Positions 5,043-32,034 of a DNA stretch of 64,000 nucleotides are shown piece by piece (positions within the stretch are counted from its first letter, which is position 1; every line of letters starts with the position of its first letter). The notes below the pieces were generated by a model. The model did not search any database. It worked only from the letters and a program-made list of their open reading frames with translations, and had not been told where the DNA came from. The stretch spans positions 11,951 to 75,950 of the forward strand of contig CAKKPG010000052.1 in the NCBI GenBank assembly GCA_919901555.1. The letters run 5' to 3'. This stretch comes from Nitrospiria bacterium (GTDB taxonomy: Bacteria > Nitrospirota > UBA9217). Made by a program: the position numbers and the translations under genes.

Positions 5043-5086
5043 TATGACCCCGGTCATACTATTACCTTGCCTTTTCATGCTATGAT
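5043..5086 (+). promoter_or_regulatory. Crp/Fnr-type site with class II promoter upstream of the cupin gene
   Basis: TATGAC-CCCG-GTCATA (5043-5058), 22 bp before an extended -10 TGC-TATGAT (5081-5086). Confidence 0.7.
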
Positions 5087-5165
5087 AAGATCATGACGAT
5101 AACGGAGTACCCATTCCCCTTTTCTCTGTTTCGCCGCTTCTAATATCTACCAAGGAGAATCCCCA

Positions 5166-5480
5166 ATGGAAACCATCGACCTCAAGAAGATGATCAGGTT
5201 CCTTCCCGACCGCATCTCCCGGGAGATGCTCAACGACAAGCCCGAGATGCGCATCGCCCTCATGTGCCTGAGCCCCGGCCAGAAGCTCGACCCGCACAAG
5301 GCGCCGCTGCGGCTGCTCATGTACTGCGTGGAGGGAAAAGGGACCTTTACCGTGGGCGATGAGAAGATCGAGGCAGGCGAGAAGACCTGCATCCTCTGCG
5401 AGCCGAACGTTCCCCACGGATTTGCCGCCGACAAGGGCGAGAAGCTGGTGGTCATGGCGATCGTGACGCCGGTGGAGTAG
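5166..5480 (+). CDS. Cupin domain protein
   Basis: PHKAP...VEGKG...PNVPHGF cupin motifs; AAGGAG RBS. Confidence 0.85.
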   Translation: METIDLKKMIRFLPDRISREMLNDKPEMRIALMCLSPGQKLDPHKAPLRLLMYCVEGKGTFTVGDEKIEAGEKTCILCEPNVPHGFAADKGEKLVVMAIVTPVE

Positions 5481-5600
5481 AATGATGAGAAGCGTGATGA
5501 TGTTTTTTTTCTGAATCTGTGGTATTATCAGAACATCCTTGGTCGTCCGGCCCCGCTTGAAACGACTGAGAACCGGTTCGCCGTCACTCCGGGACCTTCC

Positions 5601-28224: not shown

Positions 28225-31200
28225 CTCTCGTAAGCGTTATTTTTCCGCATGAGGGGGATTGCGAAGATGAACTTGCTCCCCTTCCCGACCTCGGTCTCCA
28301 CCCATATCCTGCCGCCGTGGAGTTCGACGTATTTTTTGCACAGGTTCAGGCCGAGCCCGGTGCCCGGGACCTTTTTGGTCAACGTCGTTTCAAGCTGCTG
28401 GAAGGGCTGGAACAGCTTCGGGATGTCCTCGGGTTTGATGCCGGGACCGGTGTCGGCGACGCTGATTTCCATGAAATCAACGTCGAGTTCGGCGCTCAGA
28501 GTTCGGAGTTCCGAGTCAATGCCTTTCAAACTTTGAACTTTGTACGGAGCCTGCCCTCGAATGACGTTATCGGGGGAACTTTGAACTTTCCGTGCATGAA
28601 CATGCACGGAACTATTGTCCGGCGCATACTTGAACGCGTTGCTCAGCAGGTTCACGAGGACCTGTTTTATCTTCATCTCATCCGCGATGATGGTCCCCGG
28701 AGCTTCTTCGACGGCGTACTCGACCTGGATGCCGTGCTTGAGCGATTTTTCCTTGAACATCACGAGGCACCGCTCGATCAGGTCCTTCACTCCGAATTCG
28801 CTGGGCTCCAGCTCCATCTTGCCCGCCTCCACCTTCGACAGGTCGAGGATGTCGTTGATCAGCGTGAGCAGGTGCTTCCCGCTGCTCCCGATGTCGCGCA
28901 GGAAATCCGCCTGTTCGTCCGTCACCGGGCCGGACATGCCGTTCACCAGAATGTCCGAGAACCCGATGATCGCGTTCAGCGGCGTCCGGAGCTCATGGGA
29001 CATGTTGGCGAGAAAGTCCGATTTAGCCCGGTTGGCGTATTCCGCCGCCTGTTTGGCATCCTCGAGCTCGGTTGTCCGCTCCCTGATCTTTTCCTCAAGC
29101 TCCTCGCTGTATTTTCTTATCGTCTCCTCCGCAAGCTTGCGCTGGACAACGGAACCGAGTTGCGCCGAAATCGACGACACAAGGTCTACCAGATGGCTGT
29201 CTTCCTCGCCGGTCCTGGACATGTAAAAGGCAAGGACGGCGAGGACCTGATCGCCTATGATAATGGGGACCCCGAGGCCCGAGCGAAGGCCGATCTCCAA
29301 TGCGCCCTTGGCGCGGGGAAAAATCACGCCGTTTACCGAAACGTCCTTCACCCACTCGGGCTTTTTTGACGCCCAGACGCGGCCCGGCAGCCCCGCGGCC
29401 GGCGCGAATGTGACCCCCCTGCTGATTTCAACGAACTGCTCGGCGTCCCTGAGGGCGCTGTGCCATATATCGCCGAATTCGAGGGCCGTGCCGTCACGAC
29501 AGGGGAGCCATACCTCGGCAAAAATCCAGCCGGTGACGTCGCATACCTTCCTGATGGCGACTTTTAACGCGGATTTTAAATCATCCGCCTCGTTTATTGC
29601 CAGGGAGAGTGTCTGCAGAAGAGCGAGTTCTTCTTCCGCGCGTCTCCGCTCGGTGATGTCTTGAATGGTCCCCGACATCCGCACCGGCTTCCCCGCTTCA
29701 TCAAAAGCGGCCTCTGTTTCTACATGGACGATACGCACCGTGCCGTCCGGCGAAATGATCCGGTGGTCGACACTGAATGGCTTGGCCCCGGAGAATGCTT
29801 CTTCCATGGACTTTTCAATAAATTTTCTATCATCCGGATGAACAATATTGAGGTATGCTTCATACGTCCTGCCGAACTCTTCGAATTTGAACCCGAATAT
29901 GCGATCGACCTCATCGGAGCAGTATGCCTTGTTTTTTACGATGTCCCAGTCCCAGTTCCCCAAATGCGCGATTCGCTGAGCATTGATAAGACGGGCCTCG
30001 CTTTTTTTCAACTCCTCTTCCGCCCGCTTATGCTCGGTGATGTCCCGCGCAATGCCTACCAGGGCGATCACCTGTCCGTCCGGGTCCTTGACCGGTGAAG
30101 TCGTTAAGAGCGCGAAGTATCCGGAGCCGTCTTTTCTTCTGTTAAGAATCTCTCCGAACCACCCTCCGTCCAGGGTCTTCTTGAAAATTTCCTCACCAAG
30201 CCCGGGAGGATTATCGGGGGACTGGATAAGGGAGACGGGCTGCCCGAGCAGCTCGTCCCGGGAATAGCCGAGCTGCCTCAGGGCCTCCGGATTGGCATGG
30301 GTTATTCTGCTTTCAACATCGGTAATGATTATCACATCATTACTGCTGTCGAGGGACTGCGCCAGCATCGCGACCTGCCGGTGGTTAACGGCGTTCTGCA
30401 TGGCCACGGCGATGATGTCCGCGATGGATGCGTAAAGATGCAGCTCTTCATCGGACGGCTTCGTCTCCCGCGGCAGATAGAGGCACAGGACGCCGAGCGC
30501 CTTGTTGCGGGACTTCAGCGGAAGGATGACATGGCCGTGCTCCTTTGCATCGCGGTATATCTTGGTGTGTCTTTTGTCTTTTGTATTATTATCGGACAGG
30601 ACCGTCTGTTCCTTCATTGCCGCGAGCCCGCACAGGCACTCGCCATACCGGACCACGCCGCAGCCCGCGACCTGGTCGTCCCCGAAGTTGCGCGACACGA
30701 TAAGCTTCAGCTCCTTTGCGCCGTTGTCGCTCAAAAAGATCGCGCCCTTTTTCTCCAGGGCCAGCGGCTCAAGGCTCAAGATAGCGTCCATGATCCTGCC
30801 TGCCATGACCTCCAGCGCGAGGGACCCGCTTGCCGCATGGGAGACCGTGTTCAACACGCCGAGTTCCCGGAGCTTTCTTGCCTTCTCGGTGAAGAGGTCC
30901 TTCAGCCGCCCGGCCATTTCATTGAACCTGTTGGTGAGCGTTCCTATCTCGTCGCCGCTCTGTACGGCTATTCGCACGTCAAAATGTTCCTGCTCCACTT
31001 CTTCCGTCGCATCCGTAAGCCTCCGCAGCGGCCGGACCACGCTTTTGCGCAAATACACGCCGATAAAGACCGCGGCCAGCACAAAGCTGCCGAGTATGAT
31101 TATTCTTACGCGTTCGAACCGCCTTATCCTCTCTTCATAATGAAGTTCAAGGGACTTCACGAACCGGTCTATTCCCCGCACATATCCCTGGATCCGGGCG

Positions 31201-31670
31201 TTGTAGTCCAGTAACAGCGCCCGTGCCTTTTGCTCAGGCGCCTCGTGGGGAAGTTCCGCCATTTTCACGAGCAGGGGTTTGAGCTTGGCGTTCCACTCGG
31301 CCGCCAACTCATCGAAAAGCCGTAATGAAGCCTGATAATGCTTGATCGGCTTGATATAAAGCTCCGGGCTGCCGTTTCTCAGGTCTTCAATGAGCAGGTC
31401 GAACTCCCGGATCTCCCGGCGGAGCTCCGCCTTTATGGCCGCACTTGTCGACTCGACCTCATATTCCATTTCCGCTATCCTTTGGGTATGCCAGGCCATC
31501 TCAAAGGAACGGAACCTCAATTGGCCCGCGGAGTTGATCTTTGCCGCTTCACCTTTCATGCTCCGCGTGAAATTGAAGCTGGCACAGGTGAAAGCGCCGA
31601 AGACCGAGACGATGATGAAGCTCAAGAAGACATATTTGGCGGTAAGGGATTTGAACTTAAGAAGAGGCAT
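28221..31670 (-). CDS. Sensor histidine kinase: NarX/PilJ-type periplasmic domain, HAMP, GAF, 2 PAS, GAF, HisKA, HATPase
   Basis: P-box-like AAKINSAGQLRFRSF; SHELRTPL; GTGLGL; ATG at 31670 after GAGGTG. Confidence 0.85.
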   Translation of the reverse strand: MPLLKFKSLTAKYVFLSFIIVSVFGAFTCASFNFTRSMKGEAAKINSAGQLRFRSFEMAWHTQRIAEMEYEVESTSAAIKAELRREIREFDLLIEDLRNGSPELYIKPIKHYQASLRLFDELAAEWNAKLKPLLVKMAELPHEAPEQKARALLLDYNARIQGYVRGIDRFVKSLELHYEERIRRFERVRIIILGSFVLAAVFIGVYLRKSVVRPLRRLTDATEEVEQEHFDVRIAVQSGDEIGTLTNRFNEMAGRLKDLFTEKARKLRELGVLNTVSHAASGSLALEVMAGRIMDAILSLEPLALEKKGAIFLSDNGAKELKLIVSRNFGDDQVAGCGVVRYGECLCGLAAMKEQTVLSDNNTKDKRHTKIYRDAKEHGHVILPLKSRNKALGVLCLYLPRETKPSDEELHLYASIADIIAVAMQNAVNHRQVAMLAQSLDSSNDVIIITDVESRITHANPEALRQLGYSRDELLGQPVSLIQSPDNPPGLGEEIFKKTLDGGWFGEILNRRKDGSGYFALLTTSPVKDPDGQVIALVGIARDITEHKRAEEELKKSEARLINAQRIAHLGNWDWDIVKNKAYCSDEVDRIFGFKFEEFGRTYEAYLNIVHPDDRKFIEKSMEEAFSGAKPFSVDHRIISPDGTVRIVHVETEAAFDEAGKPVRMSGTIQDITERRRAEEELALLQTLSLAINEADDLKSALKVAIRKVCDVTGWIFAEVWLPCRDGTALEFGDIWHSALRDAEQFVEISRGVTFAPAAGLPGRVWASKKPEWVKDVSVNGVIFPRAKGALEIGLRSGLGVPIIIGDQVLAVLAFYMSRTGEEDSHLVDLVSSISAQLGSVVQRKLAEETIRKYSEELEEKIRERTTELEDAKQAAEYANRAKSDFLANMSHELRTPLNAIIGFSDILVNGMSGPVTDEQADFLRDIGSSGKHLLTLINDILDLSKVEAGKMELEPSEFGVKDLIERCLVMFKEKSLKHGIQVEYAVEEAPGTIIADEMKIKQVLVNLLSNAFKYAPDNSSVHVHARKVQSSPDNVIRGQAPYKVQSLKGIDSELRTLSAELDVDFMEISVADTGPGIKPEDIPKLFQPFQQLETTLTKKVPGTGLGLNLCKKYVELHGGRIWVETEVGKGSKFIFAIPLMRKNNAYER

Positions 31671-31990
31671 TGTCCACCTCTTGACGGGCAGGGCCTTGCG
31701 GGCCAAGAAAGAGAGCGGACGCTTCCGGCGGCTGTTTCCGCAACGGTGTCGGCAAAAGTGAAAACCGCATGTTCATGCTCAGCCTCCGGAAGACGGAAAA
31801 CCGACCTGCGCTGATTTTGTTTATGATCTGCACTGAAGAAACAACGTCGGTTTTTCAGCGTCAAGCCGTGGCAAGGAACTTAGCCCTGCCGGCAAGTAAT
31901 CATGATTTTTCCCTGTCTCCGTGGTCATGCGGCAACCTTTCAATTTTTAAAGGATAAACTCAATTTTAATGCACATGCGCCGCTCGCGGA

Positions 31991-32034
31991 TATGATATAT
32001 ATCATATACTCCGCCTCCTGTCCGGGACTACAAT
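31991..32034 (+). promoter_or_regulatory. Crp/Fnr-type site and -10 upstream of the MOSC gene
   Basis: TATGAT-ATAT-ATCATA (31991-32006), 22 bp before TACAAT (32029-32034). Confidence 0.65.

Follow-up and report, generated by a model that had tools for sequence, protein, structure and literature searches.

We describe a 16-base palindrome, TATGAYNNNNRTCATA (TATGAY-N4-RTCATA), that is matched exactly at five positions in a 64,000-nucleotide stretch of a Nitrospirota genome (the window, G000:C52:11951-75950; G000 is the draft source genome, 3.45 Mb in 220 contigs with 57% G+C and a completeness of 96.5%). This motif is real, conserved and regulatory. It is probably the operator of a Crp/Fnr activator, a 223-aa protein encoded outside the window on contig C208 (86-757, minus strand), that controls a nitrogen-oxide stress gene set. 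Our best reading of the compared genomes is that the protein would be a class II activator that resembles HcpR and DNR and responds to nitrosative stress, and the operator is very probably common to a whole lineage of uncultured Nitrospirota.

The operator motif and its promoters

Copies of the motif had been reported in the initial annotation at 5043, 14440, 17290, 22122 and 31991, and each of these is an exact match to the pattern; no match occurs in any of 100 dinucleotide-preserving shuffles of the window. The whole of G000 holds 13 exact matches where base composition predicts 0.32, all of them with the TGA-N6-TCA core of Crp/Fnr-superfamily operators. Far from being scattered, the sites stand at promoters of hcp, of the hcp-associated DUF1858 gene and of nor-like, c552-type and ferredoxin genes, and hits at hcp and nor-type genes had been predicted from the window copies (the hcp product scores 826 bits against an equivalogue cut-off of 367). 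We regard the motif as sharply defined because one-mismatch sites, of which G000 has 12, are at or below chance level by a rough estimate made without a computed control. Sites with one or two mismatches number 244, and a good -10 hexamer at a spacer of 21-22 bp accompanies eight of them. The only one that looks credible, and a plausible fourteenth site, is a one-mismatch sequence (TATGATCTCCCTCATA) at C9:34299-34314, which is followed at 21 bp by TATACT and precedes the gene for a 233-aa YwiC-like membrane protein. A core match at 10872 was left out of the set; its flanks are G/G and it lies inside a molybdopterin oxidoreductase gene.

Each site was oriented by its better -10 hexamer, a good hexamer being one whose match to TATAAT scores at least 5 of a possible 7. 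Such a hexamer is found exactly 21 or 22 bp past the motif in 12 of the 13 G000 sites, the exception being the second of two overlapping sites on contig C38, while 8.7% of 20000 random G000 positions reach the same score with either direction and spacers of 20-23 bp allowed. These promoters lack a -35 element, the best match over three spacings at the 12 promoters being 2-4 of 6 bases (mean 2.6). With the predicted -10 taken as -12 to -7, the centre of the palindrome falls at about -41.5 to -42.5. The class II spacing that had been claimed for the window copies is borne out by this fixed distance and the weak or absent -35 element. Four promoters have an ATG 5-6 nt past the -10 hexamer, namely those of the window polyferredoxin (ATG at 17339, 6 nt), the MOSC gene (ATG at 32040, 5 nt), the second polyferredoxin on contig C8 and the YwiC-like gene. 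Because the ATG is so close to the -10, the mRNAs of these genes look leaderless.

The motif is present in all 24 genomes of the same family, with 2-14 sites each and 175 in total against 12 for a reversed-pattern control, and elsewhere in the phylum 31 sites, against 5 for that control, were counted in sixteen genomes that belong to other families. All 35 sites of three same-family genomes (G009, G016 and G006) and one genome of another family (G036) were compared one by one. Orthologues of G000 targets adjoin 26 of the 35, and in all 26 the better -10 hexamer faces that gene (Table 1, last column). The other nine precede genes for an 80-aa zinc-ribbon protein (3 genomes), a multihaem cytochrome (2 genomes), a NifU-domain protein, a radical SAM/SPASM protein and an anonymous open reading frame, with one doubtful position.

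A candidate Crp/Fnr regulator near the sites in relatives

A profile search identified three HTH_Crp_2 proteins in G000. All three are encoded on contigs other than that of the window, in agreement with the initial annotation, which had seen no Crp/Fnr protein with a helix-turn-helix (HTH) there; a cNMP-domain protein of the window (49785-50429, minus strand) showed no HTH domain in a family profile search. The candidate regulator on C208 carries an N-terminal cNMP-binding-type domain (PF00027, C208:416-673) at 92.1 bits against a cut-off of 27.5 and a C-terminal HTH_Crp_2 (PF13545) at 68.6 bits against 27. Its recognition helix reads TTVETSIR; of the two paralogues, which are on C97 and C30, one has REVVSR and the other REAVSK. 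The stretch GTTVETSIRT is invariant in all orthologues of at least 57% identity, and TTVETxIR is kept down to 36%.

Orthologues of the C208 type, at 73-87% identity, are present in 21 of the 24 family genomes. Homologues come from uncultured Nitrospirota contigs and, at about 60% identity, from Thermodesulfovibrio and Magnetobacterium records; the nearest ones outside Nitrospirota belong to Bacteroidota, have 31-35% identity and do not stand next to hcp. Database names of the protein are generic ('CRP/FNR family'). Two loci titled Betaproteobacteria and Chloroflexia (L042 and L098) encode an 85%-identical regulator with sites in the downstream flank, and are probably mis-binned Nitrospirota DNA.

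The link between regulator and sites was examined at 65 orthologous loci from public genomes, all of at least 55% identity and with sufficient downstream flank, which together hold 65 sites in 526 kb. In 47 of the 65 loci, spanning 57 to 88% identity, an exact site lies 400-1100 bp past the stop codon of the regulator. The gene order in relatives is regulator, a convergent 137-aa membrane-protein gene, two sites, and a divergent DUF1858 gene, and the same divergent pair stands at the end of contig C179 in G000. Sites and regulator also co-occur: five genomes of other families in which the best regulator match is at most 30% identical have 0, 0, 0, 1 and 1 sites, and G010, a member of the same family without an orthologue, has 3 sites that lack known targets and mostly lack a -10. 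The search for Crp/Fnr genes proposed in the initial annotation thus ended in one protein with an altered recognition helix, encoded outside the window and tied to the motif by neighbourhood and co-occurrence.

For G000 itself the adjacency is taken from relatives, since regulator and sites lie on different contigs. Heptamer repeat arrays stand at the start of C208 and close to the end of C179, and because of these arrays and the gene order in relatives the two contigs are probably close to each other in the genome; joining them was rejected, as their ends do not overlap. Autoregulation was likewise rejected, no exact site being present upstream of the regulator gene in the 65 loci or in G000.

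Arrays of 7-base tandem units are a wider feature of intergenic DNA in G000, a genome rich in short tandem repeats, and coincide with contig ends. They were seen at C179 13016-13165 and 13640-13840, at C208 1-58 and at about 12626-12665 of the window. Units of the form (GRCAGNA)n lie between and after the two C179 sites, (ACAGGAG)n stands at the start of C208, and AATTGAA-type units occur in the window and upstream of the C8 polyferredoxin. Contigs of a related strain lack positions 12605-12756 of the window.

Base recognition, signal and alternative readings

Aligned by HMMER with solved Crp-family proteins, V-E-T-S-I-R of the regulator lies against R-E-T-V-N-K, which in CRP numbering gives Val180, the kept Glu181, Ile184, and Arg185 at a position that stays basic. 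The helix of E. coli FNR, V-E-T-I-S-R, begins with the same V-E-T, and its Ser contacts the first T of TTGAT. The third box base is A in the G000 sites, T in FNR sites and G in CRP sites. Residue 180 correlates with this base, Arg going with G and Ser or Pro with T (Rodionov et al., PMC1274295, accessible part here and below). Both other Crp/Fnr paralogues of G000 have Arg at position 180. From the helix alignment, the published correlation and the FNR helix we infer that this protein and other family members would read the TGA core alike, and that the hydrophobic surface of Val and Ile would favour an A:T pair. Glu181 and Arg185 would fit the conserved core, and Val180 and Ile184 the A at the discriminator base.

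We infer activation in the following form. A dimer would bind the palindrome, whose centre is about 41.5-42.5 bp ahead of the predicted transcription start, occupy the place of the -35 element that the promoters lack, and recruit RNA polymerase as the class II activators FNR, DNR and HcpR do. This would switch on hcp with the DUF1858 gene, the small COX1-like membrane protein, the nor-like oxidase with its cytochrome c', the octahaem c552-type reductase, the ferredoxin, the two polyferredoxins, the cupin, the CBS+HPP pair and, in G000, the MOSC protein.

The most conserved block of the sensor domain is FGGxAV...PYPAxA. In CRP the 'PRTSS' stretch contacts cAMP through its Arg and Ser (Thr). The invariant PYPAxA ('PYPAN' in the regulator) aligns by HMMER with 'PRTSS' of M. 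tuberculosis CRP, and the regulator has a single Cys, at position 121, that is not conserved among orthologues. It scores 87.9 bits in the CRP equivalogue against a cut-off of 266 and stays far below the FNR and NtcA cut-offs as well. Because PYPAxA replaces PRTSS, the Cys is not conserved and the equivalogue scores are low, the protein appears to be neither a cAMP sensor nor an Fe-S sensor. Its signal would be NO or a related nitrogen oxide, as the target genes suggest. The initial annotation had proposed an NO/nitrite-type Crp/Fnr regulator with shifted specificity; target genes, recognition helix and the differing box all support that proposal, with NO or nitrite as the putative signal. A further step, possible but doubtful in our view, would be a Nitrospirota-specific Crp/Fnr subfamily that combines the Val180/Ile184-A:T rule with a non-haem, non-Fe-S PYPAxA pocket sensing nitrogen oxide.

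Operator and regulator may be as described while the signal is something other than NO, such as nitrite, hydroxylamine, oxygen/redox or a metabolite, held in a distinct pocket. Neither Cys nor His is conserved in the sensor domain, and FGGxAV...PYPAxA sits at the cAMP-contact stretch of CRP. Moreover, the targets include an HPP protein, of a family that we take to be nitrite transporters, a MOSC/YiiM-like protein whose match is 6-hydroxyaminopurine reductase, and Hcp, which NCBIfam names hydroxylamine reductase. Nothing in the analysis separates NO from nitrite. However, hcp, the nor-like oxidase, cytochrome c' and DUF1858 are typical of published HcpR, DNR and NsrR regulons (PMC1274295), and we consider a non-NO signal rather unlikely.

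Several observations weigh against an NO-type activator encoded on C208 with the regulon given above. G001, which is 98% complete, has 5 well-placed sites and no detectable C208-type orthologue; G007 also has none, but in that genome the contig breaks off within the neighbouring membrane-protein gene. In G000, C208 carries no site. The overlapping C38 sites have no clear downstream gene; judged by eye, the DNA beyond them resembles, on the opposite strand, remnants of an IS200-like transposase and of a PIN-domain gene. MOSC orthologues occur in 7 relatives at 60-67% identity, none with an upstream site at up to 2 mismatches. No His or Cys is conserved in the sensor domain of the orthologues, because of which a haem or Fe-S mechanism as in DNR, HcpR or FNR is unreadable from the sequence. 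The only RNA run found, metatranscriptome X1 in the form of contigs, contains, at depth 2-4, eight short stretches identical to parts of the region; such contigs give neither starts, strand nor levels and so have no bearing on promoters.

The sites of G001 and the separation of regulator and sites in G000 would be explained if another protein, the C97 or C30 paralogue or an unrelated one, bound the operator and the neighbourhood of the C208-type gene were the coincidence of a conserved cluster. This is improbable given the regulator-site link in 47 of 65 loci over orthologues of 57 to 88% identity, the joint absence of sites and orthologue from other-family genomes, and the 3 poor-geometry sites of G010, which lacks an orthologue. 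The Arg180 of both paralogues, furthermore, goes with G and not with A at the discriminator base (PMC1274295).

No better do we rate the view that the bound protein is a repressor or dual regulator blocking the -35 region. A site over the -35 region can also repress, and Crp/Fnr proteins are known to both activate and repress. However, good -10 hexamers without a -35 element are expected of activator-dependent promoters, and a repressor needs no exact register such as the 21-22 bp kept in all but one of the sites. That the motif is a non-regulatory repeat or chance pattern is close to inconceivable: no support for it was found beyond the general richness of G000 in short tandem repeats, and the sites, absent from the shuffles and variable in their central four bases, are single, promoter-proximal and kept upstream of orthologous genes in rearranged genomes.

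Target genes and related regulons

Coordinates of the sites and genes are given in Table 1. Domain checks confirmed the labels cupin, NapH-like polyferredoxin and YiiM-like MOSC given to window genes in the initial annotation. Its 'norCB' holds in part, the genes encoding a haem-copper oxidase subunit I and a c-type cytochrome with a NorB_cytochrome_c-like match; the 'nor' label of the site 2 operon comes from this match and from context, without an equivalogue match, and NO reductase activity is predicted at most. In 'CBS-HPP' both domains are present but on two separate genes. The MOSC/YiiM-like protein has 6-hydroxyaminopurine reductase as its best NCBIfam match, at 128.8 bits and below the cut-off of 294.

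Table 1. Sites and genes in the window (plain numbers) and elsewhere in G000 (contig:position). The last column gives the number of genomes among G009, G016, G006 and G036 in which the feature has a site.
Feature	Position	Strand	Remarks	Relatives with site
Operator site 1 (TATGACCCCGGTCATA)	5043-5058	+	22 bp upstream of -10 TATGAT at 5081-5086	
Cupin, 104 aa	5166-5480	+	first gene past site 1	2 of 4
Histidine kinase (Tll0287-like sensor, HAMP, HisKA, HATPase)	5601-7238	+	downstream of cupin	
OmpR-type response regulator	7210-7887	+	downstream of cupin and histidine kinase	
Operator site 2 (TATGACCTATATCATA)	14440-14455	+	21 bp upstream of -10 TATTCT at 14477-14482	
nor-like operon	14519-17282	+	three genes past site 2	4 of 4
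c-type cytochrome subunit	14519-15202	+	nor-like operon; likely ATG 14525	
Haem-copper oxidase subunit I	15268-16653	+	nor-like operon	
Cytochrome c'-like protein	16674-17282	+	nor-like operon	1 of 4
Operator site 3 (TATGACCCAGGTCATA)	17290-17305	+	21 bp upstream of -10 TATACT at 17327-17332	
NapH/CcoG-like membrane polyferredoxin (Fer4_5)	17339-18280	+		3 of 4 (G009, G016, G006)
HPP-family membrane protein	20832-21419	-	two-gene unit 20832-22038	
CBS-pair protein	21451-22038	-	two-gene unit 20832-22038	2 of 4
Operator site 4	22122-22137	-	22 bp from -10 TATGGT (plus-strand ACCATA at 22094-22099)	
Operator site 5 (TATGATATATATCATA)	31991-32006	+	22 bp upstream of -10 TACAAT at 32029-32034	
MOSC/YiiM-like protein	32040-32702	+		
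hcp	site C213:3628		21 bp from TATAAT	2 of 4
DUF1858 protein, 70 aa			passes TIGR03980 'hybrid cluster protein-associated' cut-off	4 of 4 (pair)
COX1-like membrane protein, 137 aa	C179:13220-13633		divergent from DUF1858 gene	4 of 4 (pair)
Octahaem c552-type multihaem reductase, 555 aa				2 of 4
Ferredoxin, 62 aa				1 of 4
Second NapH-like polyferredoxin	C8			3 of 4
Overlapping double site	C38:17269-17298		two exact sites, starts 14 bp apart, 2 bp overlap	
Leaderless-type promoters, putative	17327-17341; 32029-32042; C8:775-790; C9:34336-34350			

The kinase/response-regulator pair that follows the cupin gene is possibly co-transcribed with it. Site 5 may serve two divergent promoters because a good -10, TAAAAT at a spacer of 22 (plus-strand ATTTTA at 31963-31968), is also present in the opposite direction; it faces the gene for a 1161-aa PilJ-HAMP-GAF-PAS histidine kinase (28221-31706, minus strand), which is followed by two response-regulator genes. 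On the minus strand at 22174-25234 lies a second nor-like pair (cytochrome c subunit 24533-25234, oxidase subunit I 23195-24523), followed by the gene for a protoglobin-PsiE fusion protein (22174-23160). By eye, the motif was not seen upstream of this second operon, nrfH, the c552 gene of the window or the napG-like gene. The nrfH-nrfA pair (18821-19285 and 19069-20766) is present here and absent in a related strain, since the contigs of that strain (runs X2 and X3) join 18282 directly to 20760, with window positions 18283-20759 missing.

The eight G000 sites outside the window account for six target genes and the two overlapping C38 sites. Co-regulation with hcp of the kind known from HcpR is seen in the 62-aa ferredoxin, the two polyferredoxins and the c552-type reductase, all of which carry sites. 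The 137-aa membrane protein, the most constant neighbour of the regulator gene, resembles only helices of haem-copper oxidase subunit I (positions 319-414 of the COX1 profile), with a weak match to NnrS, and may act in the NO response as a small haem protein.

The initial annotation had placed cupin, MOSC, CBS-HPP and polyferredoxin genes together in nitrosative-stress biology. Membership of the cupin, the CBS-HPP pair and the polyferredoxin is kept in relatives, that of MOSC is not, and the MOSC link to the regulon appears specific to G000. Cupin orthologues have their own site or lie within a site-bearing polyferredoxin operon in G009, G016, G006, G007 and G036; the operon arrangement is found in G009 and G006, and an own site in G016 and G007 as in G000. 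CBS orthologues have a site in G036, G006 and G001, and hcp is preceded by one also in G009, G006, G007 and G024. The 80-aa zinc-ribbon protein is cysteine-rich and has its sites at loci L126, L136 and L145 (G009, G016 and G006); tblastn did not find it in G000, a genome whose completeness is stated above.

Published boxes of comparable regulators are TGTGA-N6-TCACA for HcpR of Desulfovibrio, wyTTGACnnnnGTCAArw for HcpR1 (Geobacter, Desulfuromonas, Desulfotalea and two cyanobacteria), GTAAC-N4-GTTAC for HcpR2, TTAAC-N4-GTTAA for NssR and TTGAT-N4-ATCAA for DNR and FNR (PMC1274295). The initial annotation held that the core found here differs from HcpR, DNR and FNR boxes, and it does; the published HcpR boxes are not enriched in G000, where TGTGA-N6-TCACA, TTGAC-N4-GTCAA and GTAAC-N4-GTTAC occur 0, 1 and 2 times against 2.24, 2.25 and 2.25 expected. 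TTGAT-N4-ATCAA occurs 6 times against 1.3 expected, with no copy on the contig of the window, and G000 may have a second, FNR-type regulon. The Crp/Fnr paralogue on C97 adjoins a molybdopterin oxidoreductase-like gene, recognized by eye from its TAT-like N-terminal translation.

HcpR1 is similar in being a Crp/Fnr protein without an FNR-type cysteine cluster, with a half-site ending in TGAC and a regulon predicted from comparative genomics, and its targets (hcp, ferredoxin-like genes, nitrite reductase and sometimes norB) resemble the genes that follow the box here. Unlike HcpR1, the system described here has A before TGAC and then an invariant T outward (TATGAY), Val at residue 180 in place of Ser or Pro, and Nitrospirota as its taxon. 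DNR of Pseudomonas, of the same superfamily, likewise lacks an Fe-S cluster and activates nor genes in NO stress and denitrification, but DNR is a haem-based NO sensor with an FNR-type box (TTGATnnnnATCAA), and no nir or nos targets were seen here. Special kinship to DNR or CooA was rejected, as PDB matches favour neither; because the regulator is matched at 67 bits by the DNR chain 3dkw but at 91 bits by M. tuberculosis CRP, no such tie to DNR is apparent.

E. coli FNR shares the class II geometry near -41.5 and the TGA-N6-TCA core; the regulator differs from it in lacking the N-terminal Cys cluster that ligates a [4Fe-4S] centre, in having Ile at the equivalent of FNR Ser212, and in a first half-site base that is A, not T. 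The P. gingivalis HcpR/HcpR2 group and Campylobacter NssR are also Crp/Fnr proteins that activate hcp or globin genes in nitrosative stress, but their boxes are GTAACnnnnGTTAC and TTAACnnnnGTTAA (PMC1274295), and P. gingivalis HcpR senses NO through haem (PMC12750200, accessible part). By these comparisons the Nitrospirota system appears to work like an HcpR/DNR-type activator with a box set apart from the published HcpR boxes. A literature search found neither a TATGAY-N4-RTCATA-type box nor a Nitrospirota HcpR, although RegPrecise and the supplementary tables of PMC1274295 may list more variants.

We regard the system as a solid case of a switch whose kind is known; the literature search did not find its binding sequence described. 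The understanding of how such switches work is unchanged by it, and its main use lies in annotating an uncultured lineage; it also contributes one further case to the code that relates residues of Crp/Fnr recognition helices to bases. If the tentative Nitrospirota-specific subfamily is real, it would mean a new way of sensing nitrogen oxide and a discriminator rule outside the published table, together with a nitrosative-stress role for the cupin, the 137-aa COX1-fragment protein, the 80-aa zinc-ribbon protein and the CBS+HPP pair. Conserved co-regulation puts several unannotated genes, those of the cupin, the polyferredoxins, the CBS+HPP pair, DUF1858 and the small COX1-like membrane protein, in nitrogen-oxide stress biology. 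For this uncultured Nitrospirota lineage, widespread in groundwater and sediment, the result is a regulon that is sharply defined and open to testing.

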